64,000 bases of DNA from Candidatus Fimimorpha excrementavium (GTDB lineage Bacteria > Bacillota > Clostridia > Lachnospirales > Lachnospiraceae). Position numbers and translations under genes: made by a program. The notes below the pieces were generated by a model, which worked only from the letters and a program-made list of their open reading frames with translations, was not told the origin of the DNA and did not search any database. The stretch spans positions 6,598 to 70,597 of the forward strand of contig DVJD01000089.1 in assembly GCA_018710785.1 (NCBI GenBank), in the 5' to 3' direction. Positions 3,294-39,650 of this stretch are shown here, piece by piece (the stretch's first letter is position 1; each line of letters begins with the position of its first letter).

Positions 3294-4262
3294 ATGAGTG
3301 AAAAATTGATTATAAAAGGACTGACAAAAAAATTCAGCAAAACCGAGGGTGTGGAGAATATCAACATCAGCGTTAATGAGCATGAGCTGCTGACACTTCT
3401 CGGACCCAGCGGCTGCGGCAAGACGACCATTCTGCGCGCCATCGGCGGCTTCAACAAAATTGACGCCGGAAAGATTCTCCTGGACGGACAGGAAATCCAG
3501 GATCTTCCGCCGGAGAAGAGGCCCACAGGCATGGTGTTCCAGAGCTACAACCTTTGGCCTCATATGACCGTGTACGAAAACATGGCGTTTGGACTTCAGA
3601 TCAGAAAGCATACCAAAGCGCAGATGAAAGAAGAAATCCACGATATGTTAAAGCTGGTGCGCATGGACGGGACGGAGAAGAAATATCCGGCGCAGCTTTC
3701 CGGCGGACAGCAGCAGAGAATCGCCATCGCAAGGGCATTGGTATTAAAGCCGTCCCTGCTTCTTCTGGACGAGCCGTTTTCCGCTTTGGATGCCAAGATC
3801 AGAGGACAGATGAGAGAAGAACTGAAGCGAATTCAGAGAGAAGCCGGTCTGACCGTCATCTTCGTAACCCACGATCAGGAAGAGGCCATGGCCATCTCCG
3901 ATCGGATCGCTGTCATGCGGAGAGGATTCATGGAGCAGGTGGGAAATCCGGATGAGATCTATGACAATCCGAAGACCCGCTTTGTGGCAGAATTCATCGG
4001 TGAGATGAACTTTGTGGAAGAAGGCGGCGAAAGCTTTGCAGTCCGTCCGGAGGATATCACGCTGACGGTCTGCGCGGATGGTCCGTATCAGATCATCCAG
4101 ATGATGTCTTTGGGACATTACACCCAGGCCATCGTCCAGACACCGGAGAAGAAAGAACTGAAGGTGTTCATGGAAAAGGATGTGGCCAGAAATTATCAAA
4201 CAGGAAACAGAGTCACATGTACCTTTGGAAAGAAACAGAACTTCACGGACTCTGTGGCTTAA
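3294..4262 (+). CDS. ABC importer ATP-binding protein with C-terminal TOBE-like extension (PotA/FbpC type)
   Basis: Walker A GPSGCGKT, signature LSGGQQQR, Walker B LLLLDEP. Start moved to ATG 3294 (MSEKLI), which follows GAGGGAAA. The ORF-track start at 3243 overlaps the upstream permease. Confidence 0.9.
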   Translation: MSEKLIIKGLTKKFSKTEGVENINISVNEHELLTLLGPSGCGKTTILRAIGGFNKIDAGKILLDGQEIQDLPPEKRPTGMVFQSYNLWPHMTVYENMAFGLQIRKHTKAQMKEEIHDMLKLVRMDGTEKKYPAQLSGGQQQRIAIARALVLKPSLLLLDEPFSALDAKIRGQMREELKRIQREAGLTVIFVTHDQEEAMAISDRIAVMRRGFMEQVGNPDEIYDNPKTRFVAEFIGEMNFVEEGGESFAVRPEDITLTVCADGPYQIIQMMSLGHYTQAIVQTPEKKELKVFMEKDVARNYQTGNRVTCTFGKKQNFTDSVA

Positions 4263-4316
4263 TCGGATAGAAACGAAAAATAAAGAATTGCCAAAAAGGC
4301 AGAAAAGGAGAATTGT

Positions 4317-5522
4317 ATGAAAACGAAACTCATGAAAAAACACGGAAAACGAATCGCAGCAGGTGTACTTGGACTGGCACTGATCGGCAGCTCCTCCATC
4401 GGACTGACCGGATGCGGCAGTGAGGCAAACGCCGCTGAAGAAGTACCTACCGTCACCATCTGGAGCAGCGGCGGACAGGAAGTCAGAGAGGCGCTTCAGG
4501 CCATCGCAGATGCCTACAATGCCGACCCGGAATACAATACAAAGGCGAAAGTAGAGATTCAGTTCATCGTTTCCGGAACCAGTGAGCAGAGCCTTCCGGA
4601 TCGTCTGGCAGCCGCTTATAAGGCCGGCGAGACCGATACGGACTTCGACTTGATCGCCCTGGATGACAGCGCCATCGCCAATATCGAGGCACAGACCAGT
4701 GAGGACTTCTTTGACCCGATCGATACCAGCAAGATTCCGAATTATGAAAACCTGACGTTTAAGGATAACATTGTGGGCGATAATTTTATCCCGTACAGAG
4801 GAACTGCCGTATATCTGGCTTATAACTCAGAAACGGTTCAAAATCCGCCGAAGACTGCTGATGAGCTGTATCAGTGGATCAAGGACAACCCGGGAAGATT
4901 CGCTTACTGTGACCCGTCCACAGGAAACTCCGGCTTCTCCTTTGTAGCCAATACCATCTACAATCAGCTGCCGGAAGAAGCTGCCACATCCGATGATACG
5001 AAGTGGGAGACTGAGCATCAGACCGAATGGGACAATGCCTTCAATCTGCTGGCTGAACTGCATCCGAATCTGTATCAGACCGCCGGAAAGGTACAGTATC
5101 CCATGAAAAATGCCGGGTCTTTGGATCTGCTGGCAACCAAGGAAATTGATATGACGCCTGCATTTGTAAATATGGTATTGAGCCAGAAGAGCATGGGCAC
5201 TCTGCCGGACAGCATTAAGCTGACACAGCTGGAAGAGCCATTTCTGGGCGGATTGGCCGGATTTATGATGCCTTCCATCGGTAAGGATAAAGAGGCTGCC
5301 CTGTCTGTCATCGATTACTATCTGAGCTACGAAGCCCAGGCCATCGACTGGAATACCATGTTTGCATCTCCGGTTGTGGATACGTCCAAGCTGGAAAATC
5401 TGGAGCATGAAGACTGGCTGGCAGAGACCGATATGGACAGCATGCGCTACTTCTCCATCGGAACCATCCAGACTGATATTGCACAGCGCTGGACAGAGGA
5501 AATCGGAAGCCTGGCAAAATAA
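4317..5522 (+). CDS. ABC importer substrate-binding lipoprotein
   Basis: Signal peptide plus lipobox LTGCGS. About 400-aa periplasmic-binding-protein-like sequence. RBS AAAAGGAG. Confidence 0.85.
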   Translation: MKTKLMKKHGKRIAAGVLGLALIGSSSIGLTGCGSEANAAEEVPTVTIWSSGGQEVREALQAIADAYNADPEYNTKAKVEIQFIVSGTSEQSLPDRLAAAYKAGETDTDFDLIALDDSAIANIEAQTSEDFFDPIDTSKIPNYENLTFKDNIVGDNFIPYRGTAVYLAYNSETVQNPPKTADELYQWIKDNPGRFAYCDPSTGNSGFSFVANTIYNQLPEEAATSDDTKWETEHQTEWDNAFNLLAELHPNLYQTAGKVQYPMKNAGSLDLLATKEIDMTPAFVNMVLSQKSMGTLPDSIKLTQLEEPFLGGLAGFMMPSIGKDKEAALSVIDYYLSYEAQAIDWNTMFASPVVDTSKLENLEHEDWLAETDMDSMRYFSIGTIQTDIAQRWTEEIGSLAK

Positions 5523-5569
5523 AGCATCCGATCTCGTTTATCAAACGTGTGCAGAAATGAGGAAAAACA

Positions 5570-6415
5570 ATGGAAACAAAGAAGAATAAATGGATTCCCT
5601 ACCTGATGGTGCTCCCTGCTTTTGCAGTGATGATGCTTGTCGTGGTACTGCCCATCTTAAATACGGTGGTGCAGTCCTTCCAGACGGAAAGCGGCAGCTT
5701 TACACTGGCCAATTACCAGTACTTTTTCACCAGTCCGGAGGCCTTTGAGAGTTTGATCTTTACTGTGGTGGAAGCGCTGAGCACCATGATTCTTGCCATC
5801 CTGTTCAGTTTCTTGCTGGCAATGTATCTGCGTTTTTCCAAAAGTAGGATCAGCCGTCTGATCGGAAGATTATACCTGCTTCCCAGATTTATCCCCGGAA
5901 TCGTAGCCGTGTATGCGGTTATGAATATTATCAAGGACGCAGGATTTATCAATCGGTTTATGCAGCTGTTCGGAGTGGTATATAAGCCGGGTCTGCTGTA
6001 TGATATGAAAGGAATCATCCTGTGCAACCTGTGGTTCAACATTCCGTTTTCCGCCATGCTGCTTTCCGCGGCCCTGTCCTCTGTGGCTGACTCCTATGTG
6101 GAGAGCGCAAAGGACGCTGGCTGCGGCTGGTGGAAAATTCTGACAAAGATCATCTGGCCATTGGTGTATAAGGATGTCATCGTGGCAGCCACCTTTATTC
6201 TGATGGGTCAGATCGGCGCCTTTACGATCCCATACCTGACAGGGCCCAATAACCCGAAAATGCTGGGAATTCTCTTGTACCAGCAGGTCAATACCTATCT
6301 GGATTACCAGAGGGCAGCAGCTCTTTCTGTCCTGATGTTTATCATCTGTCTGGGCGGGGCCATCGTCTACATCAAGAGCAACATGAAAGAAGAAGTATGG
6401 GAAAGAGGAAAATAA
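5570..6415 (+). CDS. ABC importer permease (second subunit)
   Basis: Multi-TM protein with EAA-like loop ESAKDAGCGWWKILTKIIWP. Confidence 0.85.
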   Translation: METKKNKWIPYLMVLPAFAVMMLVVVLPILNTVVQSFQTESGSFTLANYQYFFTSPEAFESLIFTVVEALSTMILAILFSFLLAMYLRFSKSRISRLIGRLYLLPRFIPGIVAVYAVMNIIKDAGFINRFMQLFGVVYKPGLLYDMKGIILCNLWFNIPFSAMLLSAALSSVADSYVESAKDAGCGWWKILTKIIWPLVYKDVIVAATFILMGQIGAFTIPYLTGPNNPKMLGILLYQQVNTYLDYQRAAALSVLMFIICLGGAIVYIKSNMKEEVWERGK

Positions 6416-6434
6416 CAGTAAGGAGAAACGCAGT

Positions 6435-7175
6435 ATGGACATGACACAGATTTCAGTTTCAGAGCCGGTTAAAATGGACGGCCCTCACAATTTCCGCGAT
6501 CTGGGCGGTTATCCGGCCAAGGATGGGACCACAAGAAAAGGATGGATCTTCCGTTCGGACGGACTGGGAACGCTTTCCGATGCAGACCGGAACTGGATGA
6601 TGGAACACGGCATCACCTGTGTGCTGGATTTAAGAAGTGAGCGGGAGATGGAACATACGCCGGACAAGCTGAATGAATCCTTTGAATACCATGCCATTCC
6701 CATGTCGGACCGCATGAACTCCAGCGAAAACGGAACGGATCTGCCGGATCGCCTGTCCGATTTATACATCCAGATTCTGGATTGCTATCAGGACAAATTT
6801 CGCAAGATTGCAGAAACATTGGTGAACCGCAAAGGAAAACCGGCTGTTTTTCACTGCGCGGTGGGAAAGGACCGGACAGGAGTGACAGCCATGCTTCTTT
6901 TGGGGCTGGCAGGTGTTCCGGAAGAGGTGATTCTGAAGGATTATACCGTCAGTGAGAATAATATGAAGGAAACGTTTGACAAGCAGAGAGAACTGCTTCG
7001 GCAGGCAGGCTGGAAGGTTCCGGACGGACTGTTCCGCTCTCCCAAGGAGGAGATGGAGCGCACCATCCGCCACCTGAAGGAGACCTGGGGCAGCGCGGAA
7101 GAGTATTTCAAAGACTGCGGTGTTTTGGAGAATGAGCTGTCGGAACTGAAGGGGTATCTGGTGGAGAAGGATTGA
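6435..7175 (+). CDS. Tyrosine-phosphatase-family protein (CX5R active site)
   Basis: NFRDLGGY N-terminal motif and HCAVGKDRTG P-loop. RBS AAGGAG 8 nt upstream. Confidence 0.8.
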   Translation: MDMTQISVSEPVKMDGPHNFRDLGGYPAKDGTTRKGWIFRSDGLGTLSDADRNWMMEHGITCVLDLRSEREMEHTPDKLNESFEYHAIPMSDRMNSSENGTDLPDRLSDLYIQILDCYQDKFRKIAETLVNRKGKPAVFHCAVGKDRTGVTAMLLLGLAGVPEEVILKDYTVSENNMKETFDKQRELLRQAGWKVPDGLFRSPKEEMERTIRHLKETWGSAEEYFKDCGVLENELSELKGYLVEKD

Positions 7176-7213
7176 TAGACAGATAGAGTGTGCGAATGAA
7201 TGGATACCCGGAC

Positions 7214-7365
7214 GGCCATACAGAAGCAGACCATCCCTTGGCGGAGCGCTTTCGCTTATGGAAAACGTAGCGGTACTAAGATTTTTCTGCGCCGAATGCG
7301 GCTGGAAAAATCAAGTACCGACGTTTTCCAAAATCCGCCAGAAGATGGTCTGCTTCTGTATGTCC
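7214..7365 (-). repeat. Long-hairpin repeat, copy A (152 bp)
   Basis: Terminal arms 7214-7235 and 7344-7365 are complementary at 21 of 22 positions. The core closely matches copy C in reverse orientation. Strand is given as the orientation in which the side hairpin reads GCGAAAGC. Confidence 0.8.
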
Positions 7366-7415
7366 TGTGGGTGAGAGGCCATGAGTGAGAGATAGAGATA
7401 ATAGGTGTGACGAGT

Positions 7416-7505
7416 TGACGTTGCTTGATTCTGCGCGCGAATGCGGCTGGAAAAATCAAGTACCGACATTTTCTAAAACCCTCTGGAAGATGGTTTGCTT
7501 CCCTG
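7416..7505 (-). repeat. Long-hairpin repeat, truncated copy B (~90 bp)
   Basis: Carries the apex (GCGAATGCGGCTGG) and one complete arm (GAAAAATCAAGTACCGACATTTTC...GATGGTTTGCTTCC). The opposite arm is shortened by deletions. Confidence 0.6.
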
Positions 7506-7577
7506 CCGCCTGATCACACTAAGCTTTACCATTCTCATCGCCCCTCACCCATTCTTATTTTTAGAAAAACATTCTCA

Positions 7578-7730
7578 GGCCGGAGAGAACGAACCATTTC
7601 CCTGACGGGCTTTGAAAAACGTCGGTACTTGATTTTTCCAGCCGGACACGGTGCAGAAAAATCTTAGTACCGCTACGTTTTTCACGGAGCGAGAGCGTCC
7701 CGACAGGGAAATGGTTCGTTCTCTCCGGCC
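7578..7730 (+). repeat. Long-hairpin repeat, copy C (153 bp); probable bidirectional terminator between the phosphatase gene and thrS
   Basis: Perfect 27-bp terminal stem (7578-7604 with 7704-7730). Conserved core. Side hairpin GCGAGAGC. T-rich runs on both flanks. Confidence 0.85.
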
Positions 7731-7786
7731 GTCCGGTTTTTCATTTTTTCACAGCCCCTTTTACGCTCCGCTGGGGATGAAATCGG

Positions 7787-9715
7787 TCAGGCTTCTTCGG
7801 CGGAAGCTTTGCGGTTTTTGCGGCTGGCGATCTCTTCTTTTACGGAGGAGAGGAAGGCGGAAAGTTCTTTGGAACCTTCGTCGCCCTGGAAGCGGCTTCT
7901 GACGGAAACGGTGTGGGTTTCTTCTTCTTTGGCGCCCACGATCAGCATATAAGGGATCTTTTTCAGCTGTGCTTCGCGGATCTTGTAGCCGATTTTTTCG
8001 GTTCTGGTATCCAGATCGGCGCGGATGCCGGAATCCCGGAGGGTTTGAAGTACTTCTTTGGCGTAGGCTTGATGCTTGTCGGAAATGGGCAGGACACGGA
8101 CCTGAACCGGAGCCAGCCAGGTGGGGAAGGCACCGGCAAAGTGTTCGATCAGGATGCCGATGAAACGTTCGATGGAACCGAATACCACGCGGTGGATCAT
8201 GATCGGTCTGTGTTTCTCGCCGTCAGCGCCGGTGTATTCCAGCTGGAACCGAAGCGGGAGCTGGAAGTCCAGCTGGATGGTTCCGCACTGCCAGGTTCTT
8301 CCGATGGAATCTTCCAGATGGAAGTCGATCTTTGGTCCGTAGAACGCGCCGTCTCCTTCATTGACCACATAGGGAAGACCAAGGTCATCCAGGGCATCGC
8401 GCAGGGCATCGGTGGCCATCTCCCAATCTTCATCGCTGCCGATGCTGTTGTCCGGTCGTGTGGAGAGTTCCACATGGTATTTGAAGCCAAACAGCTGGTA
8501 TACTTCATCGATCAGACGGGCTACGCCTTTGATTTCGCTGCGGATCTGTTCCGGCGTCATGAAAATATGGGCATCGTCCTGGGTGAAGCAGCGCACGCGC
8601 ATCAGTCCGTGGAGCTGACCGGATTTTTCATGGCGGTGAACCAGACCCAGTTCTCCCATGCGCAGGGGCAGATCCCGGTAGGAGCGGGGTTCGGACTGGT
8701 AGACAAGAACGCCGCCGGGGCAGTTCATGGGTTTGATGGCGAAATCCTGCTCATCGATGACGGTGGTATACATATTTTCCTTATAGTGATCCCAGTGGCC
8801 GGAAGTCTCCCAGAGCGTGCGGCTCAGCATGATGGGGGTGGAAATCTCCACATAACCGGCCTTTGTATGGATTTCTCTCCAGTAGTCCAGCAGGGTATTT
8901 TTCAGTACCATGCCGTTGGGCAGGAAGAAGGGGAATCCGGGACCTTCTTCCCGCATCATAAAGAGCCCCAGTTCCTTTCCCAGTTTTCTATGGTCGCGTT
9001 TTTTGGCCTCTTCCAGACGGTTCAGATATTCTTCCAGTTCTGCTTTTTTCGTAAAGGCGGTCCCGTAGATACGGGTCAGCATCTTGTTCTTTTCATTGCC
9101 TCTCCAGTAGGCGCCGGCCAGGCTGGTCAGCTTAAAGGCTTTTACCGGTTTGGTGCTCATCAGATGGGGGCCTGCACACAGATCCACGAATTCTCCCTGC
9201 TGATAGAAGCGGATGACGGCATCTTCCGGAAGATCCTCGATCAGTTCCACCTTATAGGGTTCGTTCTTTTCTTTCATGAATGCGATGGCCTCATTTCTGG
9301 GCTTGGTAAACCGGGTAATGGGAAGCGCTTCCTTTACGATCTTCTTCATCTCCGCCTCAATCTTTTCCAGATCGTCATTGGTAAACGGCGTCTCCCGGTC
9401 CACATCATAGTAGAAGCCGTCGGCGATGGAAGGCCCGATGGCCAGTTTGGTCTCCGGATAGAGGCGTTTGATGGCCTGGGCCATGATATGGGAGGTGGTA
9501 TGGCGGAAGGCATCGCGGCCTCCCTGATCGTCAAAGGTAAGAATATTTAAATGGCAGTCATGGTCCACCATGGTGCGCAGGTCCTGAACGTCTCCGTCGA
9601 TTTCTCCTGCACAGGCGACTCTGGCCAGACCTTCGCTGATATCAGAAGCGATATCCAGGATGGACTTGGGTTCCTGGTATTCCTTTGTAGTACCGTCTTT
9701 TAATGTGATAATCAT
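7787..9715 (-). CDS. thrS: Threonine--tRNA ligase
   Basis: TGS-domain start MIITLKDGT, editing and class II core motifs (HRHEKSG, FTQDDAHIF, GAFYGPKID), C-terminal anticodon-binding domain. Start moved to ATG 9715 after AAAGGAGA. The ORF-track extension reads through the T-box leader. Confidence 0.95.
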   Translation of the reverse strand: MIITLKDGTTKEYQEPKSILDIASDISEGLARVACAGEIDGDVQDLRTMVDHDCHLNILTFDDQGGRDAFRHTTSHIMAQAIKRLYPETKLAIGPSIADGFYYDVDRETPFTNDDLEKIEAEMKKIVKEALPITRFTKPRNEAIAFMKEKNEPYKVELIEDLPEDAVIRFYQQGEFVDLCAGPHLMSTKPVKAFKLTSLAGAYWRGNEKNKMLTRIYGTAFTKKAELEEYLNRLEEAKKRDHRKLGKELGLFMMREEGPGFPFFLPNGMVLKNTLLDYWREIHTKAGYVEISTPIMLSRTLWETSGHWDHYKENMYTTVIDEQDFAIKPMNCPGGVLVYQSEPRSYRDLPLRMGELGLVHRHEKSGQLHGLMRVRCFTQDDAHIFMTPEQIRSEIKGVARLIDEVYQLFGFKYHVELSTRPDNSIGSDEDWEMATDALRDALDDLGLPYVVNEGDGAFYGPKIDFHLEDSIGRTWQCGTIQLDFQLPLRFQLEYTGADGEKHRPIMIHRVVFGSIERFIGILIEHFAGAFPTWLAPVQVRVLPISDKHQAYAKEVLQTLRDSGIRADLDTRTEKIGYKIREAQLKKIPYMLIVGAKEEETHTVSVRSRFQGDEGSKELSAFLSSVKEEIASRKNRKASAEEA

Positions 9716-9998
9716 TTCGTTTCTCCTTTCGGTTTGATGGGCGGGAGGGAATCGGACCAAATAAAAAAGTCCCTTACAGCACCATGGCTGTAAGGGACGG
9801 GCATACATGCTCGCGGTTCCACCCTTTTTGTGAATCGAATCCTGCGATTCACCGCTTACTTTGATGATAACGGAATCACCGGGCCGGATTGGGGCCGCTT
9901 GGAGCTGGTCTTCAAATGGTTCCCAATAAGATGCTTTCAGCGCAGGGCATCTCTCTCTGGATTGTTCCGCATTTTACTCGTCTCTTCATCGCTTTGCT
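9716..9998 (-). promoter_or_regulatory. T-box leader (threonine specifier ACC) controlling thrS
   Basis: On the minus strand: GCGATGAAGAGACGAGTA stem I start, AGAGAG box, specifier context GAAG-ACC-A (ACC is plus 9907-9909), T-box core GGGTGGAACCGCG (plus 9812-9824), then a terminator hairpin. Confidence 0.8.
9763..9798 (-). terminator. T-box attenuator terminator
   Basis: 12-bp stem GTCCCTTACAGC/GCTGTAAGGGAC with a 6-nt loop, followed on the minus strand by TTTTTT. Confidence 0.8.
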
Positions 9999-11420: not shown

Positions 11421-11537
11421 ATGAAAATGTTTGGATTTATTAGCGGTTTCTGCTATTTACAATTTTCATTTTCGGCCGTATACTTCTTTACAAGAACACA
11501 AAACAAGAAAAAAACCGATGAAAATGTTCATATATAA
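11421..11537 (+). CDS. Candidate leader or small membrane peptide (38 aa, Phe-rich): MKMFGFISGFCYLQFSFSAVYFFTRTQNKKKTDENVHI
   Basis: ORF read by eye; it is below the ORF-track size cutoff. AAAGGA lies just upstream, with best spacing for the second ATG at 11427. It stops 16 nt before the phnW-like start. Confidence 0.25.
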   Translation: MKMFGFISGFCYLQFSFSAVYFFTRTQNKKKTDENVHI

Positions 11538-11553
11538 GATGGAGGAAAACAAA

Positions 11554-12675
11554 ATGGAACAAAAAATACTTTTGACTGCCGGCCCGATCTGTACCAGCAT
11601 GAGAGTAAAGGAAGCGATGCTTCGCGACCTTGGAACAAGGGATCACGAATATCAGGATATGGTGGAGCAGCTGAGAAATGAATTGCTGCAGCTGGCGCAT
11701 GTGGATGCGGATACCCATTCGGTTGTGTTTCTGCAGGGTTCCGGAACCTATGGCGTGGAAAGTGTTTTGGACAGTTCTGTGGGGAAAAAGGGAAAGGTAC
11801 TCATTTTGTCCAATGGAGCCTATGGAGAGAGGATGGAGCAGATCTGCATCGCCCATGGCATTTCCCATCAGATGCAGTCGTTTTCCAAACTGGAAGCGCT
11901 TCCGGTGGAGCAGCTGGAATCCTATATTAAGGAGGACAGCATTACCCATGTGGCGTTCATCCACTGCGAGACGACGGCAGGGGTTCTCAATGATTTGGAA
12001 GCGATTTTGAAATTGACGCACAAGTATCACAAAAGAAGCATCGTGGATGCCATGAGCAGCTTCGGAAGCATGGAGATGAATCTGAAAGAGCTGGATATGG
12101 ATTTTCTGATCACTTCCTCCAACAAATGCCTTCACGGCGTTCCGGGTGTGGCGATTATCTATGGAAAACAGGAGGCGTTTCAGCAGTGCGAAGGCAATGC
12201 GGATAACCTGGCCATGGATTTGTATAAGCAGTGGGCGGAGATGGAAGCATCCCGCGGCGCATTCCGTTTTACGTCGCCGACCCATGTTCTTTTGGCGCTG
12301 AACGAGGCCGTGAAGGAACTGAAAGAGCAGGGAGGCATTGCGGTAAGGCACGATCATTATGTGTTTCTGCAGAAGAAAATTCAGGATACCATGAAAGAAC
12401 TGGGATTTGAGGCTCCGGTAAAGAGAGAAGAGCAGGCGCCGGTGATCACCACCTATTTCATTCCCGAATGGATGGATTTTTCCCATTTCTATGATTGGAT
12501 GAAGGAGCGGGATATTTTGCTGTACAGCGGAAAGCTCCCGGGATATCACGCATTCCGGATCGGAAACCTGGGAGACCTGTCAGTTTCTGACATTGAGCGG
12601 ACATTGGATGAGATCCGCGTGTACGTCGGGGAGTACGGACCGAAGAGCGGCAAACCATCAATGGTTGAAGAATGA
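11554..12675 (+). CDS. phnW: 2-aminoethylphosphonate:pyruvate aminotransferase-like class V aminotransferase
   Basis: N-terminus ILLTAGPICTSMRVKEAML and PLP-lysine context SSNKCLHGVPG match the AEP transaminase pattern. Start moved to ATG 11554, 8 nt after GGAGGA. Confidence 0.8.
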   Translation: MEQKILLTAGPICTSMRVKEAMLRDLGTRDHEYQDMVEQLRNELLQLAHVDADTHSVVFLQGSGTYGVESVLDSSVGKKGKVLILSNGAYGERMEQICIAHGISHQMQSFSKLEALPVEQLESYIKEDSITHVAFIHCETTAGVLNDLEAILKLTHKYHKRSIVDAMSSFGSMEMNLKELDMDFLITSSNKCLHGVPGVAIIYGKQEAFQQCEGNADNLAMDLYKQWAEMEASRGAFRFTSPTHVLLALNEAVKELKEQGGIAVRHDHYVFLQKKIQDTMKELGFEAPVKREEQAPVITTYFIPEWMDFSHFYDWMKERDILLYSGKLPGYHAFRIGNLGDLSVSDIERTLDEIRVYVGEYGPKSGKPSMVEE

Positions 12676-12707
12676 ATATGACAGTTGGATAGAAGGGAGA
12701 ACGGGAA

Positions 12708-13868
12708 ATGAAAGCAGTTTGGCTGATTCATGAGTTGACGGAGAGGGGAATCGGGCATTTTATCGGTGTGCCGGACAGTACGCTGTCGGATTTTTGCAAG
12801 TGTCTGGAGCGGCAGTATGCAGACTGCCATGAGGTTCCGGCCAATGAAGGAGCGGCGGTGGCTTTGGCGGCAGGCCATTATCTGGCGGAGCAGAAGCCGT
12901 GTCTGGTTTATATGCAGAACAGCGGGATCGGAAATGCGGTCAATCCCATCTGCAGCCTGATCCATGAGAAGGTGTATCGGATTCCGGTTTTATTTTTTGT
13001 GGGATACCGCGGGGAGCCGGGGAAGAAGGACGAACCGCAGCATGTGTTCCAGGGAGAGGTTACCATCCCGCTTTTGAACCAGCTTGGCATTCCCTGTGAG
13101 GTGATCGGAAGCGAGACGACAGAGGAAGAGATGAAGGCGATTCTCGACCGTGCATGGGATGCGCTTGCAGACCGAAAGCCCTATGCAGTGGTGATTAAGA
13201 AGGGAACCTTTGAAAAAGAGACGGCCGGGACGGATCCGGGATCGAAGAAGACGGACAGCCGGTTTGGCGCGGATGTGCCGTTTACCATGAAGAGAGAGGA
13301 TGCGATTCGGGTATTTGCGGAATATCTGAAACCGGAGGATGCGGTGATTTCCACCACCGGGAAGATTTCCCGAGAGCTGTATGAACAGCTGGATCAGCAG
13401 AAGGGAAGCCACAGTCAGGCCTTTCTTACCGTGGGGTCCATGGGACATGCGTCCATGATCGCCCTGGGATTTGCAGAGTCCAGACCGGATAAGCGGGTGT
13501 ACTGTCTGGACGGTGACGGAGCGGCATTGATGCATCTGGGCGCCATGGCGTTTATCGGGGAACACCATCCGGGTAATTTGGTACACTTGGTATTAAATAA
13601 CCGGGCCCATGAGTCGGTGGGGGGGATGGCCACGGGAGCCGTCCATATCGACTGGAAGCGCGTGGCGGAAAGTTTGGGCTATCTGCATGCGTACTCGGTG
13701 AAAAATGAGACAGAGCTTCGGCTGATTTTGGAAGAATGTCAGGAATTGACCGGCCCTGTTTTTATCGAGGCAAAAGTGGCGCTGGGAGCCAGGGAAGATC
13801 TGGGACGTCCGAAGGAGCGGGCGCAGGAAAACGGAGATCAGTTTGTGAACTATCATCAGTCAGTATAA
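12708..13868 (+). CDS. aepY: Phosphonopyruvate decarboxylase (ThDP-dependent)
   Basis: About 386 aa with single-chain ThDP architecture. N-terminus GIGHFIGVPDS. ThDP motif GDGAALMHLG...NN. Located between the transaminase and the PEP mutase. Confidence 0.8.
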   Translation: MKAVWLIHELTERGIGHFIGVPDSTLSDFCKCLERQYADCHEVPANEGAAVALAAGHYLAEQKPCLVYMQNSGIGNAVNPICSLIHEKVYRIPVLFFVGYRGEPGKKDEPQHVFQGEVTIPLLNQLGIPCEVIGSETTEEEMKAILDRAWDALADRKPYAVVIKKGTFEKETAGTDPGSKKTDSRFGADVPFTMKREDAIRVFAEYLKPEDAVISTTGKISRELYEQLDQQKGSHSQAFLTVGSMGHASMIALGFAESRPDKRVYCLDGDGAALMHLGAMAFIGEHHPGNLVHLVLNNRAHESVGGMATGAVHIDWKRVAESLGYLHAYSVKNETELRLILEECQELTGPVFIEAKVALGAREDLGRPKERAQENGDQFVNYHQSV

Positions 13869-13887
13869 ATTAAAGAGAGGAAATGAG

Positions 13888-15192
13888 ATGGGTAAAACAG
13901 TCTATGCGGCGTTCACCTCGGAAGTGATCCATGAAGGCCATAAAAACATATTGGAAGAAGCAAAAAAATACGGGGATGTGATCGTGGGTGTCTACAGTGA
14001 TGAAGCGATCCTGCGGTTTGACCGCTATCCTACGGTGCCATTTGAAGAGCGGATGAATGTATTTCGCAGTCTGCCCGGCATTTCCCAGGTGGTTGTGCAG
14101 AAAAACGTGTCTTATAGGGAAAATTTGCTGAAATATCGTCCGGATTATGTGATTCATGGGGATAACTGGAAATGGAATGAACAGAAAGTCATCCGGGAGG
14201 AAGTGATTCAGATCTTAAAGGAGTGGGGCGGAGAGCTGATTGAAGTGCCCTACACGGTCAATGATCATGTGAAGAAGGTGGAACGGGATCTGAAGGACCA
14301 GCTTGCCATGCCGGAGTTTCGCCGCCGTCGGCTGAGAGAAGTGCTGAAGCTGCGCCCCATCGTGCGCGCGTTGGAGGTACACAATGGAATTACTTCTCTG
14401 ATCTGTGAAAAAACCATCGTGGGTTCCGAGGTGGACGGAGGGCTGGATCAGTACGATGCCCAGTGGGTATCCTCCCTGTGTGATTCCACGGCCAAGGGAA
14501 AACCGGATATTGAGCTGGTGGACATGTCCAGCCGGATGCGCACCATCGATGAGATCATGGATGTCTCCACAAAGCCCATTATCCTGGACGGCGACACGGG
14601 CGGTCTGATCGAGCATTTTGTATACAATGTCAGAACCATGGAGCGCATGGGAATCTCTGCGGTCATCATCGAGGATAAGACAGGGCTGAAGAAAAACAGT
14701 CTGTTTGGAACGGAAGTGGAACAAACCCAGGATACCATCGAAGGGTTCTGTGAAAAGATCCGAGCGGGAAAAGAAGCGCTTCGAAGCAAAGACTTCATGA
14801 TCATCGCCCGCATCGAAAGTCTGATTCTGGAGAAGGGAATGGAGGACGCCCTCGCGCGTGCCTTTGCCTATGTGAAGGCAGGCGCAGACGGCATCATGAT
14901 CCATTCCAGAAAAAAGGATCCGGATGAAATCTTTGAATTCTGTGATACCTTCCGCAGACAGGATAAGGTGACTCCCATCGTGGTGGTGCCCACGTCCTAT
15001 AATCAGGTGACGGAAGAAGAGCTGGCGGCCCATGGAATCAATATCGTCATCTATGCCAACCAGCTGACCAGAGCGGCATTTCCTGCCATGCAGAATGTGG
15101 CGTCGGAGATCCTGAAGCATCACCGGGCAAAAGAAGTGGATGATAAACTGATGCCGTTTAAAGATGTGATCCGGCTGATTGATCCGGAGTAA
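13888..15192 (+). CDS. aepX: Phosphoenolpyruvate mutase fused to an N-terminal HxGH cytidylyltransferase domain
   Basis: EDKTGLKKNS (14671-14700) matches the PepM-diagnostic EDKxxxxxNS motif. N-terminal ~135 aa carry HEGH (13930-13941) and ...YVIHGDNW, as in CCT/ECT/TagD-type cytidylyltransferases. Confidence 0.9.
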   Translation: MGKTVYAAFTSEVIHEGHKNILEEAKKYGDVIVGVYSDEAILRFDRYPTVPFEERMNVFRSLPGISQVVVQKNVSYRENLLKYRPDYVIHGDNWKWNEQKVIREEVIQILKEWGGELIEVPYTVNDHVKKVERDLKDQLAMPEFRRRRLREVLKLRPIVRALEVHNGITSLICEKTIVGSEVDGGLDQYDAQWVSSLCDSTAKGKPDIELVDMSSRMRTIDEIMDVSTKPIILDGDTGGLIEHFVYNVRTMERMGISAVIIEDKTGLKKNSLFGTEVEQTQDTIEGFCEKIRAGKEALRSKDFMIIARIESLILEKGMEDALARAFAYVKAGADGIMIHSRKKDPDEIFEFCDTFRRQDKVTPIVVVPTSYNQVTEEELAAHGINIVIYANQLTRAAFPAMQNVASEILKHHRAKEVDDKLMPFKDVIRLIDPE

Positions 15193-21978: not shown

Positions 21979-23628
21979 ATGAGAAAGTCAAACATTGGCA
22001 AGATGACAGCATCTGTCCTGGCAGCAGCCTTGTGCATGGGAACATTGGCAGGCTGCGGAAGTACACCGGCTGGGACAGCAGGCGGGGAAACAAATGCCCA
22101 GGAAACCAAAGCCGAGGAAACAAAGGCAGCAGAAGGCAGCGAGGGAGAAGCGGATACAGAAGGAGCTGCCGAAGGAGAAGTTTCCTATCCGCTGAACAGC
22201 GATGAGACGCTGACCATCTGGACGCCGCAGGCGCTGCCGGCAGGCTATACGGATTACAATGAAGTGCCGTTCTATAAGAATTTAGGAAAGCAGATCGGTG
22301 TGAACATTGAGTGGAGCGGTCCCAGCACCGGTGAGGATGCCAAGAAAGCCTACAGTCTTTTGATGGCAGCGGAAGAACTGCCGGATATCATTTTCTACTG
22401 GCCGCTGCAGAATGGAGAAGAAACCGATATTGCCGATGGAATCTATGTGGAACTGACCGATTATCAGGAGTATTTCCCGGATTATCTGAAGGCAGCGGAA
22501 GCCACAGGAGAAATCAAGAATACAAGGATGGATAACGGCGGCATCGGAACCTTCTGGATGATGCGCGGCGATGAGCGTCTGAATGTATACCAGGGGATGG
22601 TAGTGCGTCAGGACTGGCTGGATGAGTGCGGTCTGGAAGTGCCGGATACGCTGGAGGAGTATGATACTGTGGCCCGTACCTTCCATGAAAAATACGGTGC
22701 GGTCTTCACACAGGTGGACAGCCGTTCCATGAACTCTGTAAATACCGCGTTTAATGCCACAAAAGCTTATTATGTCAACGATGAGGGAGAGATTGTGCTG
22801 GGCGCCATCGAAGACAATTACAGAGAGTATCTGGAGTTTATGAATCAGTGGTATGAGGACGGCATCCTGGATCCGGACTTTGCCACCATGGATGCAAAAA
22901 TGCAGGAAACCAAGGTGCTGAATGATCAGACCGGTTTGGCTGTCACATCCAGCGGTACCGTATCCGGCTGGATCAGCAACCTGGAAGCCAACGGCAACTC
23001 CGCTGAATTCGTGGCTGCTCCTTATCCGCCGAAGGAAGACGGCGAGACACCGGAGTTTGGCCATGCCAGAAATATGGTTGTAAGCTTTGGCGCAAGAATC
23101 ACCACAGACTGTGAAAATATTCCTCTGGCCTGCCAGGTACTGAACTGGGGTTATACCGAAGAAGGTCAGCTGTACTGGAACTTTGGTGAAGAGGGCGTAA
23201 GCTATGAGATGAAGGATGGCGAGCCGGTATTTACCGATGTGGTTATGAAGGATGAAAAGGGAATCGATCATGGTATCAATACCTATGCCGGCGCCGCAGG
23301 AAACTTTGTCACGGTTCAGGATTACAGAATGTGGGAACAGAAGAATACCGATGTGGGCGTTGCAGCAGTGGATGTATGGGCAGAGACCAATCAGAAAGAT
23401 CATGTGCTTCCAAATCTCTCCTCTACACAGGAAGAAAACGAAGCCATCACAAATGACAGTGCTGCCATCAACAATTATATCGATGAAATGTACTATAAGT
23501 TCATCATGGGCGAAGAAAGCCTGGATGATGCCAACTGGCAGAAGTACGTGGATACCATCAAATCCATGAATGTGGACAATATCCTGAAAATCAAGAATGA
23601 GCAGCTGGATCGCTGGAACAACAGATAA
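21979..23628 (+). CDS. Large extracellular sugar-binding lipoprotein (LplA-like, 549 aa)
   Basis: Lipobox LAGCGS, acidic linker, long SBP body. RBS AAGGAGGA. Confidence 0.85.
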   Translation: MRKSNIGKMTASVLAAALCMGTLAGCGSTPAGTAGGETNAQETKAEETKAAEGSEGEADTEGAAEGEVSYPLNSDETLTIWTPQALPAGYTDYNEVPFYKNLGKQIGVNIEWSGPSTGEDAKKAYSLLMAAEELPDIIFYWPLQNGEETDIADGIYVELTDYQEYFPDYLKAAEATGEIKNTRMDNGGIGTFWMMRGDERLNVYQGMVVRQDWLDECGLEVPDTLEEYDTVARTFHEKYGAVFTQVDSRSMNSVNTAFNATKAYYVNDEGEIVLGAIEDNYREYLEFMNQWYEDGILDPDFATMDAKMQETKVLNDQTGLAVTSSGTVSGWISNLEANGNSAEFVAAPYPPKEDGETPEFGHARNMVVSFGARITTDCENIPLACQVLNWGYTEEGQLYWNFGEEGVSYEMKDGEPVFTDVVMKDEKGIDHGINTYAGAAGNFVTVQDYRMWEQKNTDVGVAAVDVWAETNQKDHVLPNLSSTQEENEAITNDSAAINNYIDEMYYKFIMGEESLDDANWQKYVDTIKSMNVDNILKIKNEQLDRWNNR

Positions 23629-24511: not shown

Positions 24512-24580
24512 GCGGAGAAGGAAAAGAATGGAGTTGCAGAGACCTGACATAATCAGTGTTGGGAAGGAGCAGTGTGTGGC

Positions 24581-27493
24581 ATGGACAAGATAAAAATAAA
24601 AATGGATGATGTAGAGACAGAATTGGCGGTCTGCGGCGGTCAGCTGGAATGGTCAGAGGAGCACTATATTACAGAGCGTTCTCTGAAATGGACGGCGAAA
24701 AATGGGGACTGCCTGCGTATTGACAGACCGCTGGCGGTGCGGGAAAGACGGGTTTTGGAAACCTATCAGCTGAAGGGGAAGACCGTTTCTTTAAAAGAGT
24801 ATGGATTTGGTTTCCATGGTTTTGTGTACAGCACGGAACCGTCGGACCAGAAACTGATTTTTTCATTCTGGAAGCAGGGGGAGAAGTGCCTTTCCTTTAC
24901 CTATCATTTGAATTATATCGGATGGAAAGAGATCAATATTCCATACGAGCGGGGATTTATGAAGGGGCAGTATCAGGAGGGCATGGATCGGATGACGGTT
25001 TCCATATCCACAGACCGGGAAGGAGCGGTGGTATATCTGGATGATATCCAGCTGTGCAGATCCATGAGCCCGCTGCATGTATACGGCGCCATGTGTGAGC
25101 AGGTACCGGATCTGGGAAGACATACCAGGCGGATGACGGCCTGTACGGAAGAGATGGGCGGCATCTGGCTGAACCGGCCCATTCTGTTTAAAGAAAAAAT
25201 CACAGAGAGCCGGAAACGTACCTTTGCCGAGATGGAGTCCCGGTATCTGGCCATCTGCGATGAGATGGATCTGCCGCCCTTTGAGTCCTTTCATGCGGAA
25301 AAACAGGAGATTCTGGACTTCTTTGACTCCTATCATTTGAGGGAGACAGAAGGGCGGATCACAGGAAAGCATATCCAGGGAAATACCGCCTATATCCGCA
25401 TGATGAAGGCCCTGGCATATGAATATCAAAGGCAGCCGGATGAGAAATTGGCGGATTTGTTTATCCTGGCCTACCGTCATCTCAAAGACCAGAACAGTAA
25501 AGTGAACTGGTACAATGGACGCGGAGCAGCCAGCAGTTTCCTGCTCATGAAGCCGGTCTTAAAGCAGAGAGGGCTCCTGAAAGAAGTGACCGCCTATCTC
25601 AAATATCAGTATGGGTTTAACAAGGTTTACGATACCACGTCCAAGGCCGGGGTAGCCGGACATCGGTTTGAGGACTCGGATGTCACAGGCATGGATCTGC
25701 CAAGTATGCTGGCCTGTGTTCTTCTGATGGAAGACTGTGATGAGAAGGTGCAGGATATGCGGTATCTCGTCCGCTATATGGAAGAATTTTGCCTGGGATA
25801 TGCGCCCGGGATCAGCAGCGGCTGCAAAAAAGATGGGGTGATTTCCCACCACTGCGGTTTTGTGCGCAATTATCAGATCGTAGCGGTGTATTCCTTCTCC
25901 CGGGTATTGGAGATCCTGGCGGACACGGAATTTATGATCGGTGAAACGGCCGTCAGTCGTTTTCGGACTATTTTGGAGACGGAGTACAAGGTATATCAGG
26001 GCGCCTATGAGAGCTTTGCCCTGAGCGAGTATGAATTTAACGCCCAAAAGGATGTCAGCGTCTGCGAATTTGCCCATACAGCCCGGGCGCTGCATGATGA
26101 GGAATTGGCCCGGATGTACATGCGCCTGGCGGAGACATCGAAAAGAGAGCGTGAGATGCCATACTATAAAGAGTGGAAGGCCAAGGGCCTGGAACCGGCT
26201 CCGTTGACAGACGTACATAAGACTCTGACATCGGCGGCAGCGGCCATTCACAGAAGAGGCAGACAGATTGCCACGGTGCGCGGCCACAGCCAGTATGTGT
26301 ATTCCATGGAAATCTGGCCGGAACTGGGCGGACGCTATACCGCATTTTCTCTGTACCGGTCCTTTGGATTTTTGGAGCTGGCGGAGTATCCCCAAGGAGA
26401 CAGCGGACTGCAAAACGGCGTGATGATCGACCGGGGCTTCGATTACCGCCGCTGGAACGGAGCCACGGCGGTGTGCCTGCCCTATGATCAGATCAAATCG
26501 GCGCCTTTGGATGTGGATGATGAGCGGGCGGAATGGCTCATGTCCGATCAGCCGTTTGTGGGCGGACTGGACGACAGCAGACAGAATGGAATCTTTGTGC
26601 TGAAACTTCACGGCCATCAGAAGTATGGCATGGAGAGCTTTTATGCCAGCAAGTCCTATCATTTTTATGATGATGTGATCGTCTGCCTGGGAAGCGGCAT
26701 CAACAGCGATTATGAAAACTATGACACAGAGACCACCCTGTTTCAGGATTACGGCAGCGGCGCCGTGCGCGAGGGCAATATCCTGGCCGATAACCGGGAT
26801 AACGGATATTATGTTTGGGATGCCAGCCAGCTGGAGTTCTTTGAAAAAGATGTGGTGTCGCGGGACATGAAGGATCACGAAGATACCCATGGCCATCGGG
26901 CGTTTGCGCTGCTTAATCATGGAAAGCAGCCAAAGGATGCCTCTTATGCGTACCTGATTGGCATGAAGAAGGGCATCGATGGAATCCGCGTCCTGTCTGT
27001 GGAAGAAAACATCCGGATTTTAAGGCAGGATAAATACGCGCACATTGTACAGATCTTTGATAAGAGGGATTATGTACTGTTCCGGAAGGATTATGAGCTC
27101 CATGACCGTTATATTGACAGCGTCACAGAGAGCTGCCTGCTGTCCCTGACCCATGGGGAGGACGGCAGCATCCATCTGTCGGTATGTGACCCGGATCTTC
27201 GCTATTATCATGGGGAGAGTGAAGATTATGATCTGAACCGTGTACAGAGAGAACAGGCGGTTTATGGGCGGTTCTGGATGTATAATGAGAGCCATCCGTC
27301 TCTGATTTGGGTTGTATTTAATGGAAAGGTTCAAGCGCTTCAGACGGTTTCCGGAAAAGCCGCGCGTATTGTCCAGCAGTCCCAGACAAAGACCATACTA
27401 GAATTTGAGTGCTGCGATGGATTCACCAATGAAGTGAAATTTAAGCTCAAAGACGATACAGCAGAGCAGATGCAAAGTACCGTTAAAAAGTAG
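24581..27493 (+). CDS. Polysaccharide lyase, PL8-like (chondroitin AC / hyaluronate / xanthan lyase fold), 970 aa, cytoplasmic
   Basis: DGVISHHCGFVRNYQIVAVY resembles the PL8 DGSFxQH....Y.G.YG block. RWNGATAV resembles W.R.PGTT. KSYHFYDDVIVCLGSGI resembles the Lyase_8 K.WF.FDDEIV.LG.GI block. Start moved to ATG 24581, 11 nt after AGGAG. Confidence 0.55.
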   Translation: MDKIKIKMDDVETELAVCGGQLEWSEEHYITERSLKWTAKNGDCLRIDRPLAVRERRVLETYQLKGKTVSLKEYGFGFHGFVYSTEPSDQKLIFSFWKQGEKCLSFTYHLNYIGWKEINIPYERGFMKGQYQEGMDRMTVSISTDREGAVVYLDDIQLCRSMSPLHVYGAMCEQVPDLGRHTRRMTACTEEMGGIWLNRPILFKEKITESRKRTFAEMESRYLAICDEMDLPPFESFHAEKQEILDFFDSYHLRETEGRITGKHIQGNTAYIRMMKALAYEYQRQPDEKLADLFILAYRHLKDQNSKVNWYNGRGAASSFLLMKPVLKQRGLLKEVTAYLKYQYGFNKVYDTTSKAGVAGHRFEDSDVTGMDLPSMLACVLLMEDCDEKVQDMRYLVRYMEEFCLGYAPGISSGCKKDGVISHHCGFVRNYQIVAVYSFSRVLEILADTEFMIGETAVSRFRTILETEYKVYQGAYESFALSEYEFNAQKDVSVCEFAHTARALHDEELARMYMRLAETSKREREMPYYKEWKAKGLEPAPLTDVHKTLTSAAAAIHRRGRQIATVRGHSQYVYSMEIWPELGGRYTAFSLYRSFGFLELAEYPQGDSGLQNGVMIDRGFDYRRWNGATAVCLPYDQIKSAPLDVDDERAEWLMSDQPFVGGLDDSRQNGIFVLKLHGHQKYGMESFYASKSYHFYDDVIVCLGSGINSDYENYDTETTLFQDYGSGAVREGNILADNRDNGYYVWDASQLEFFEKDVVSRDMKDHEDTHGHRAFALLNHGKQPKDASYAYLIGMKKGIDGIRVLSVEENIRILRQDKYAHIVQIFDKRDYVLFRKDYELHDRYIDSVTESCLLSLTHGEDGSIHLSVCDPDLRYYHGESEDYDLNRVQREQAVYGRFWMYNESHPSLIWVVFNGKVQALQTVSGKAARIVQQSQTKTILEFECCDGFTNEVKFKLKDDTAEQMQSTVKK

Positions 27494-27516
27494 TTCGATA
27501 AAAGGAGGACTGTAAA

Positions 27517-28893: not shown

Positions 28894-29095
28894 AAAAACT
28901 GGCTGGCCGTGATGAGATTTTCCATGGAGCAAACAGGGAGATACTGCTGGCTGGCAGAGCGGGATTGGTTTATAAAAAACGCTGATTTTTATGTAAAAAC
29001 GGGTGGTTTTATGTACCTGTACTAGTCACTTTATCAGTGATTTGGTATAATTACAAAAAGCAAAAAATTGATACGTAAATGGAGGGATGATTCGA

Positions 29096-39273: not shown

Positions 39274-39463
39274 AACCTGTTACCAAAAACCATCCTTTCC
39301 ATCTTACTTCAACCAAGCCCCCACACGTCATCTCAATACTCGTTAAACCTCAAAATCCTGCAAACGATCCAAACTTCTCTCAGCCTGTCTCCAAACCATT
39401 TTGGCCCCCAAAGCAGCTATCTAAAAAAGCCCCCATATCTGACACCACGCAGTTCAATTCACA

Positions 39464-39616
39464 GGCAGAAGGAAACGCCCCTTCCCTCTGAAGGGTTTTG
39501 GAAACCGCCGGTGCTTGATTCTTTAAGCCCGTCAGGGCGAAAAAGAATCTTAGCACCGCTGCGCTTTCCACTAAGCGAAAGCGGCCCGCCAGAGGGAAGG
39601 GGCGTTTCCTTCTGCC
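39464..39616 (+). repeat. Long-hairpin repeat, copy D (153 bp)
   Basis: Perfect 27-bp terminal stem (39464-39490 with 39590-39616). Core homologous to copies A and C. Side hairpin GCGAAAGC. Confidence 0.85.
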
Positions 39617-39650
39617 GTCCGGACCGCCACAAACACATGCCTGGAATGCT

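Follow-up and report, generated by a model that had tools for sequence, protein, structure and literature searches.

Long-hairpin repeats in a gut clostridial chromosome as probable relics of a miniature transposable element with two kinds of insertion-sequence ends

The window considered here is a stretch of 64,000 nucleotides (nt) from Candidatus Fimimorpha excrementavium (Lachnospiraceae; contig DVJD01000089.1), and its gene content is that of ordinary chromosome. An operon encoding an ABC transporter and a Y_phosphatase3 protein ends at 7175 and is convergent with thrS (7787-9808, minus strand); an amidase gene is also present. The spacer between the operon and thrS holds three copies, A, B and C, of a long-hairpin repeat, and a further copy, D, lies beside a gene for a protein of 524 amino acids (aa). 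The four copies are very probably decaying relics of a non-autonomous miniature inverted-repeat transposable element (MITE) of the DDE type from gut Clostridia, within which the hairpin is an internal module. The sense strand of a copy is taken as the strand on which the loop of its side hairpin reads GNRA. The features are listed below, where ISAs1 refers to the insertion sequence (IS) family of that name.

7176..7213, minus strand: copy A trailer remnant (CGTCCGGGTATCCATTCATTCGCACAC...), which alignments identify as a decayed homologue of the ISAs1-left-end trailer CGTCCGGATTCCCATTTTGTTCACAATTT; it abuts the phosphatase stop codon at 7175
7214..7365, minus strand (the sense strand): copy A, a 152-nt hairpin with the A-type outer stem, from repeat search, folding and family alignment
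7366..7397, minus strand: copy A leader remnant (CTCATGGCCTCTCACCCACAG), homologous to the MITE leader ...CATTGCTCCTCACCAA...CACAG
7398..7759, no strand: the B-plus-C block, a decayed divergent-pair composite, from comparison with strain L025
7416..7510, minus strand: copy B, truncated to the 5' arm and apex (homologous part 7429-7510), with the 3' arm, side hairpin and trailer largely deleted
7511..7577, plus strand: the B-C spacer, formed by the copy C leader (..CTCATCGCCCCTCACCCATTCTTATTTTTAGAAAAACATTCTCAG); its homologue in composite MITEs is their central spacer
7578..7730, plus strand (the sense strand): copy C, a 153-nt hairpin with the C-type outer stem (27/27 bp), from repeat search, folding and family alignment
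7731..7759, plus strand: copy C trailer remnant (GTCCGGTTTTTCATTTTTTCACAGCCCC), in which part of the ISAs1 left end survives as a TTTGTTCACA-like piece; next comes the stop codon of thrS, at 7787
39459..39623, plus strand: copy D, a 153-nt hairpin at 39464-39616 together with CACAG and GTCCGG flank motifs; D-type outer stem, 27/27 bp

A repeat search of the window found 32-nt arms in copy A (7214-7245 and 7334-7365) that are 88% complementary and 32-nt arms in copy C (7578-7609 and 7699-7730) that are 97% complementary. The two copies are mutually inverted, with 83 nt (7259-7341 and 7602-7684) being 89% complementary. Copy B is a direct copy, 89% identical, of the 5' arm and apex of A at 7429-7510, with a short complementary piece at 7416-7430 and no 3' arm. 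Three matches to the 29-nt core block are present in the window, with 0, 1 and 0 mismatches, where chance predicts none. Both A and C fold as a single long hairpin on either strand, with RNA energies of -92 to -101 kcal/mol (z -11 to -13), and with DNA parameters copy C adopts the same fold at -65 kcal/mol (z -13.8). The folds drawn for A, C and the truncated B in the initial annotation, which had been made by reading the sequence alone, are thus borne out by repeat search and folding, as are the side hairpin (GCGAAAGC / GCGAGAGC) and the apical stem-loops of A and C.

Copy D, a fourth member and a full one, escaped that first reading and was found by a sensitive self-search of the window. It has 32-nt arms that are 94% complementary, the GCGAAAGC side hairpin and yet another, fourth, stem sequence, and its core is about 77% identical to those of A and C. 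An nhmmer profile finds no others, so that the window holds four hairpin copies at two loci in 64 kb. All of them have CAG just 5' and (C)GTCCGG just 3' of the hairpin. The 524-aa open reading frame (ORF) that adjoins D (39651-41225, minus strand) has no Pfam match, also adjoins an ABC ATPase gene and is kept in all strains examined.

Outside the window, a gapped two-arm pattern matched 16 human-gut metagenome contigs carrying about 20 hairpin copies, many of them at contig ends. The repeats break metagenome assemblies, and several Logan and ENA contigs end inside them. An exact scan with a 19-mer of the core across 185,579 species-representative genomes returned 11 matches, none of which is a true copy; given this absence, the hairpin family is either narrow or poorly assembled. 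The core pattern had 0 matches in the IMG/VR viral collection, where a 16-mer of the ISAs1 terminus gave 19 chance-level matches, none with a hairpin, and BLAST of the composite MITE described below against plasmid and phage collections gave no match. A six-frame chimeric query hit only two spurious ORF clusters among 5.8 billion proteins, and these led to contigs L057 and L059. ORFs that cross the window hairpins have no Pfam match either, and a coding role for the hairpin copies was rejected, there being no family match of the ORFs and no codon-like pattern of substitution.

In an alignment of 19 copies from gut metagenomes, pairing holds in 98.6% of stem cells and drops to 45-51% if the partners are slid. 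Both sides have changed in 29 of the 60 pairs, and 22 of these belong to the outer helix, which has 29 pairs. The divergence between subfamilies is 52-57% in the outer arms and 52-72% in the flanking leader and trailer, compared with 21% in the core; within one subfamily, stem variability is 1.3-3.7 times that of the core. The picture of a conserved core with fast-evolving, compensated outer stems, proposed from A and C, therefore extends to the family, and the 75-nt core would appear to be under sequence-specific constraint. The stems had also been called copy-specific. Their strong divergence with retained pairing stands, but a single stem type can be found at several loci whose flanks differ, as is the X type (CCAGAGAGAGGTGGrAGACACTTTGC) at four or more loci, so that the stems mark subfamilies and not single copies. 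The same palindromic insertion of about 50 nt (CATGAACACACAAAGACTTGCGCATG.CATAGCCTATGTTCGTTCATG) is seen at two loci (L029:40-95 and L059:1695-1745), at the junction of the core helix and the GNRA side hairpin.

Such stems could in principle be kept paired by mutation and not by selection, if one arm were rewritten from the other by template switching during replication of the palindrome (quasi-palindrome correction), allowing the sequence to drift at a neutral rate while the stem stays perfect. That the outer stems diverge like the unconstrained flanks yet stay paired, and that their outer 27 bp contain no bulges, are both in keeping with such a process. Moreover, the apex has been swapped between neighbouring inverted copies in L057 and L022, which shows that templated exchange occurs. 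Against it, the side hairpin and the bulges, present on one arm only, persist in all subfamilies, where arm-to-arm copying should erase them, and the intermediate states T.G and A.C persist in several copies. The strain comparisons given further on also speak against this process, which is an unlikely explanation of the pairing.

The initial annotation mistook the hairpin stems for the ends of the element and, finding them divergent, described it as the opposite of a classical MITE. The true ends lie further out and are conserved (TAGryrATTGCGAAACTC or CAGGACAAACGCATG), and members of the family carry such IS-type ends with target-site duplications of 9-11 bp. This is one of the findings that the initial annotation had itself listed as refuting its reading. 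At three loci (L027, L034 and L059) the hairpin is the central module of a unit of about 311-335 bp with conserved inverted repeats, TAGryrATTGCGAAACTC / GAGTTTCGCAAT. The unit consists of the 5' inverted repeat TAGATAATTGCGAAACTC, a leader of about 95 nt, CAG, the hairpin, CGTCCGG, a trailer of about 45 nt and the 3' inverted repeat GAGTTTCGCAATCGCCTA, and the whole of it folds with its inverted repeats paired.

A scan of IMG/VR with this inverted repeat gave 27 loci at which the repeat is the end of an IS of about 1.77 kb. In L095 the IS spans 440-2207 and is flanked by an 11-bp target-site duplication, GGTATTAACTA. The transposase of this type is about 500 aa long, and DUF772 is the only domain that passes in Pfam. 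These ends, the DUF772 IS of which they form part and duplications of 10-11 bp resemble those of the IS1182 group and other members of the IS5 superfamily with their MITEs. In contrast, the transposase scores only 72-83 bits against the curated IS1182 model NF033551, whose cutoff is 270, and it is for this reason called IS1182-like only, the family assignment being loose. A sister MITE of 188 bp (L099 and L100) has the same inverted repeats and leader, no big hairpin and a perfect 10-bp duplication, TAACCAATAA. The hairpin is thus absent from both the autonomous IS1182-like IS and the 188-bp sister, which is a further difference from IS1182. The IS with ends TAGGTAATTGCGAAACTC and a DUF772 transposase of about 500 aa (L083-L109, IMG/VR) is common at the ends of human-gut viral contigs and may represent an undescribed subgroup. 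In L034, one complete and two partial copies of the hairpin MITE lie within 1.7 kb (1-500 and 1660-1719), two of them 11 bp apart; two of the copies are separated by a segment of 1183 bp that has the 12-mer AAGATGTGTTTT at each end, which could reflect a tandem or circular arrangement or an assembly loop.

Most of the metagenomic copies have a different outer context, in which the 3' side of the hairpin runs into ...TTCAyTCATGCGTTTGTCCTG, beyond which the flanks diverge. Pairs of divergent copies, with their 5' ends facing each other over a spacer of about 65 nt, form composites of about 460 bp and have the same layout as B and C in the window. These composite MITEs are bounded by ISAs1 ends in inverted orientation, CAGGACAAACGCATG ... 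CATGCGTTTGTCCTG, and a perfect 10-bp direct repeat, CGGCTCACTT, flanks the composite on the 52-kb contig L057. The family as a whole has the attributes of MITEs, with units of 311-335 bp and composites of about 460 bp that are non-coding, share inverted repeats with IS, carry matching duplications and occur as dispersed, polymorphic copies.

The ISAs1 connection extends to complete elements. A DDE transposase gene (PF13808 plus PF01609) adjoins a hairpin copy in L023, and the transposases score well above the 70-bit cutoff of the ISAs1 model NF033564 (P0003 355.8, P0004 359.8 and P0038 346 bits); a 75%-identical protein-family member, from Lacrimispora, is named ISAs1 family transposase. Full-length hairpin-bearing ISAs1 IS (L060, L063 and L067) measure 1713 bp and comprise the left inverted repeat CAGGACAAACGCATG..., the trailer, the hairpin, about 300 nt of leader and rearranged arms, the transposase gene and the right inverted repeat ...CATGCGTTTGTCCTG. 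The same order of left repeat, trailer, hairpin, leader, transposase and right repeat is seen in all of L023, L060, L063 and L067, and the GNRA strand of the hairpin points outward in the 1713-bp IS. As in other ISAs1 elements, the inverted repeats are at least 15 bp, start with CAGGAC or CACGAC and are accompanied by duplications of 9-10 bp.

The sister ISAs1 lineages P0004, P0016 and P0038, whose transposases are 81-85% identical, have no hairpin module. Those whose ends were mapped, P0004 and P0038, are about 1253 bp long, one with a 9-bp duplication, TCGTATTCT (L068), which makes the hairpin lineage longer than its compact sisters by about 460 bp. Alignment of the left ends of long and compact forms shows a single insertion of about 458 nt, bracketed by a 10-bp repeat, TGTGAACAAA, and situated between the left inverted repeat and the transposase promoter, just upstream of an extended -10 element. 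The inner boundary of the inserted module is the MITE inverted repeat GAGTTTCGCAATTATCTA. The hairpin module is a passenger gained by one ISAs1 lineage, and most likely it arrived by insertion of an IS1182-like MITE and then spread within ISAs1 left ends. The family is of a bacterial MITE kind with hairpin-forming potential, nested in and re-mobilised by ISAs1-family IS. At L060:897-935 and L033:85-125 two ISAs1-type ends abut tail-to-head, 9-10 bp apart, which is the duplication length, and this suggests repeated insertion beside an existing end.

The trailers of A and C both keep the TTTGTTCACA-like piece of the ISAs1 left end, indicating that these two copies derive from the form carried by ISAs1. 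The window itself has neither an ISAs1 transposase nor an ISAs1 inverted-repeat motif, it lacks any transposase, recombinase or reverse transcriptase gene, and a scan of 28 window ORFs (8 + 10 + 10) gave no match to a transposase domain. A gene for an HUH or Y1 enzyme is likewise lacking in the window and beside the metagenomic hairpin copies. This last result bears on whether the 153-nt hairpin, bordered by CAG and CGTCCGG, could itself be the primary mobile unit, moving by a hairpin- or single-stranded-DNA-dependent route and landing independently in the MITE, the IS and chromosomal sites such as that of D. The border motifs recur in every copy while leader and trailer differ between lineages, D has little but the hairpin in common with the others, there is a sister MITE without a hairpin and the 50-nt palindromic insertion occurs inside the hairpin at two loci, all of which such a unit would accommodate. 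Besides the missing HUH, Y1 or other candidate enzyme, however, the ISAs1 sequence in the trailers of A and C means that larger units moved, the flanks of D retain a weak similarity to the leader (..CAATTCACAG) and there is no pair of empty and filled sites for the hairpin alone, making an independently mobile hairpin highly improbable.

None of the window copies has an intact terminus motif or inverted repeat of either kind, IS1182-like or ISAs1, or a target-site duplication. The AGATAGAG that occurs at 7181-7188 and 7390-7397 had been put forward as a possible duplication flanking A; it is present, but lies inside the trailer and leader of A, which are homologous to other family members, and its second occurrence straddles the boundary of a strain-level insertion or deletion, so that it was rejected as a target-site duplication. 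The whole of the B-plus-C block (7398-7759) is absent from strain L025 (98% identical), so that a comparison of orthologous spacers does show presence and absence. Exactly at the position of the block, L025 has (L025:830-870) a compact, canonical-looking thrS terminator with a hairpin of about 28 nt, GGAACAGGGTGCC-ac-GGCACCCTGTTCC-TTT.

In strain L110, which shows 1.6% mosaic divergence, the 611-nt spacer differs at five sites, and three of these are stem positions that form a Watson-Crick pair in L110 against C.A, A.G or G.U in the window; the L110 orthologue of copy A contains two additional Watson-Crick pairs. When L025 and the family consensus are taken into account, parsimony makes the three stem disruptions derived in the window lineage, and none is compensated. 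At the D locus of strain L115 there is a 91-nt internal deletion of the hairpin and there are three uncompensated substitutions in the arms. Collapse to half a hairpin, as in window copy B, is also seen in an X copy in L029, and the L115 deletion is similar. The recent orthologous changes are therefore all uncompensated, three in the window lineage against L110 and three in copy D of L115, which is contrary to template switching as the keeper of the stems; the intra-hairpin templated repair suggested in the initial annotation is not supported as a rapid process, the orthologous copies showing only uncompensated stem changes and deletions. The window copies are immobile relics, and since copies decay in situ the compensated divergence must largely date from the mobile phase.

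The location of the relics raises the possibility that they have been co-opted as gene-end hairpins, acting as transcription stops or as 3' stabilisers against 3' exonucleases for thrS, the phosphatase operon and the 524-aa gene. Such action has been reported for other intergenic repeats. Copies A, C and D lie 35-57 nt past the stop codons of convergent genes at 7175, 7787 and 39651 (35 nt in the case of D and the convergent 524-aa gene), their hairpins are very stable on either strand, and the B-plus-C block occupies the site of the L025 terminator. With this block of about 360 bp in its place, thrS of the window strain is without that terminator. On the other hand, the large hairpins form no canonical Rho-independent terminator, for which a GC-rich stem and a U-tract within 0-2 nt of it were required. 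Copy C had been proposed as a bidirectional terminator of thrS and the phosphatase operon on account of its T-runs; the proposal was rejected, for these begin only 7-8 nt beyond the stem and the rest of the family lacks them. Moreover, presence of the copies is polymorphic among near-identical strains, disruptive mutations and deletions accumulate, and the repeat region is not specially conserved between strains, lying within the background of the mosaic divergence. Co-option of the copies thus remains doubtful.

Over 3935-9675 of the window, most 200-nt bins show 0-3 differences from L110, with clusters of 11-15 at 6735-7134 and 9335-9534, which suggests recombination tracts within the phosphatase gene and thrS.

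A different proposal is that the hairpins are structured non-coding RNA genes or RNA-level cis-regulators read from the GNRA/UUCG strand, with the IS and MITE context a mere vehicle. The loop of the side hairpin, which the initial annotation correctly described as a GNRA tetraloop, is GNRA in every copy examined (GAAA, GAGA, GGAA or GGGA); there is covariation in the apical stem, and the apex of one subfamily is C(UUCG)G. Covariation in 29 of 60 pairs and the conservation of the core across two unrelated transposon contexts would also fit, and on the GNRA strand G.U cells outnumber A.C cells by 22 to 8. This last count was considered as proof of selection at the RNA level and was downgraded, because many of the mismatches come from contigs that are recombinant or chimeric between stem types, L033, L066 and L027 among them.

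Several results oppose an RNA function. At its gathering score Rfam 15 finds only two tRNAs in the window, and a permissive search of 7100-7850 and of the IS-borne module gives only sub-threshold matches, to mir-71 (23 bits against 50; a chance match) and to NBR2, so that no Rfam family matches the hairpin. No sigma-70-like promoter is predicted beside any window copy or in the IS-borne module, and none for the GNRA strand; the IS-borne module also has no predicted canonical terminator. The trailer sides of A, C and D each point at the stop codon of a convergent gene, and hence for the three full copies the strand that is certain to be transcribed in the window is the opposite of the GNRA strand. 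The module is located ahead of the promoter of the transposase gene in the ISAs1 element and so is not part of the normal transposase mRNA. The oligonucleotide d(GCGAAAGC) is a classic ultra-stable mini-hairpin of single-stranded DNA; as it is equally hyperstable in DNA form, the GNRA loop is not decisive for RNA and cannot serve as the RNA-level signature that it was first taken for. A guide or antisense role was rejected as well, as the variable stems match only their own partner arms and nothing else in the IS or the window. Together with the dispensability and decay of the copies between strains, these findings make an RNA gene or regulator very unlikely.

A related and somewhat broader idea, which is possible though hardly favoured, is that the hairpin is a functional strand-specific module, in the form of RNA or single-stranded DNA, that is needed by the mobile elements and was passed between the IS1182-like and ISAs1 systems. 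Perhaps, with a similarly modest chance, it is a fold-back helping the ends of very short elements to pair, or an RNase III-type processing or insulator signal. Such a module would account for three features, namely conservation of the 75-nt core, loops that are without exception GNRA or UUCG, and outer stems constrained in structure only.

The explanation preferred here is that of relics of a DDE-type MITE. The copies would owe their movement to DDE transposases that acted in trans on the outer inverted repeats, and not on the hairpin. Compensated divergence of the outer stems would have arisen while the lineages were mobile, through selection for an intact fold-back among transposing copies; this fold-back could be single-stranded DNA, a cruciform uniting both ends or, by read-through, a transcript, with the core serving as a sequence-specific site. 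After insertion and loss of their ends, the copies would drift, gaining uncompensated stem mutations and losing hairpin halves by deletion, so that any present effect of those in the window is probably no more than that of strong but passive hairpins within three 3' untranslated regions, those of thrS, of the phosphatase operon and of the 524-aa gene. A lesser contribution is ascribed to palindrome-templated correction and to co-option by the host at gene ends.

A number of observations weigh against this explanation. As the window copies have neither inverted repeat nor duplication, their origin is assigned from homology of the hairpin, leader and trailer. The leader and trailer of D are barely alignable with those of other copies, and the hairpin alone could have been the moving unit. 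The outer end of the ISAs1-borne module (ATGGGAATCCGGACG) has no IS1182-like inverted repeat, despite the bracketing 10-bp repeat, and L066, the sole IS-borne module with both MITE inverted repeats, may be a chimera. No clean duplication is found at the composites L026 and L035 or at the full IS copies L063 and L060, and short contigs that span repeats can be chimeric; chimeric assembly or recombination between copies may obscure any target-site duplication on these four and on L059. The reason why the hairpin is selected is inferred. Finally, the loops that are always GNRA, the C(UUCG)G apex and the excess of G.U over A.C hint at a strand-specific function for which the explanation has no need. 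These hints are weak, given the recombinant or chimeric contigs and apex exchange, the stability of the DNA hairpin, transcription of the opposite strand in the window and the position of the module outside the transposase mRNA.

Bacterial MITEs that fold into long hairpins include the Correia/NEMIS elements of Neisseria, the enterobacterial ERIC/IRU, the pneumococcal RUP and bcr1 of Bacillus cereus. The present family is like them in being 100-350 bp, non-coding, intergenic and multicopy, with the whole unit folding as a hairpin, and in having inverted repeats shared with IS, target-site duplications, a frequent position at gene ends and strain-variable presence. It differs in that the long hairpin is internal and distinct from the inverted repeats, that the outer stem diverges at the rate of the flanks and yet remains paired while a 75-nt core is conserved, and that the module occurs in two unrelated transposon frames, with IS1182-like and ISAs1 ends. 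The internal 153-nt hairpin with its structure-only constraint on the outer stem, and the two frames, are what distinguish the family. REPINs, which are inverted REP doublets mobilised by RAYT transposases and for which compensatory arm changes have been reported, are likewise long, hairpin-forming intergenic repeats. Whereas REPINs keep the sequence of the arm (REP) and vary the apex, the present family has variable outer arms and a conserved core next to the apex. Moreover, no RAYT/Y1 transposase is found in the window or beside the metagenomic copies, and the ends and duplications are of the DDE type. Nothing relevant was found in the literature on ISAs1 MITEs or structured ends, and there is no description of the hairpin MITE in Rfam, in the plasmid or phage collections or in the literature searched.

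The family is a clear case of nested mobile DNA, a MITE within an IS that spawns new MITEs. Because of its copies, strains differ at gene ends, as where the thrS terminator is replaced, and the copies can pass for RNA genes. They also form a natural data set for asking whether the pairing of MITE hairpins is kept by selection during mobilisation or by palindrome-templated repair, and the comparisons of orthologous copies favour selection. If it is true that the core is a cofactor site and is required, it would add a new cis-element to those of DDE transposition in gut Firmicutes.

The remainder of the window also contains eutH, whose product is identical to an NCBI protein from Candidatus Fimimorpha excrementavium (class Clostridia), as well as a V-ATPase operon, the two tRNAs and two further clusters. 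A phosphonate-type biosynthesis cluster at 11431-15192 encodes a class-V aminotransferase, a thiamine pyrophosphate (TPP)-dependent decarboxylase-like enzyme and a phosphoenolpyruvate (PEP) mutase fused to a cytidylyltransferase domain. A 549-aa ORF (21979-23628) with no Pfam match precedes the genes for a PL8 polysaccharide lyase, a sulfatase and a GH88 unsaturated glucuronyl hydrolase at 24572-30292, which look like a glycosaminoglycan-utilisation locus. In strain L117 a deletion of 113 nt (window ~39325-39437) lies just upstream of D, which is intact, and the region upstream of eutH is thereby length-polymorphic among strains, at 280-393 nt.

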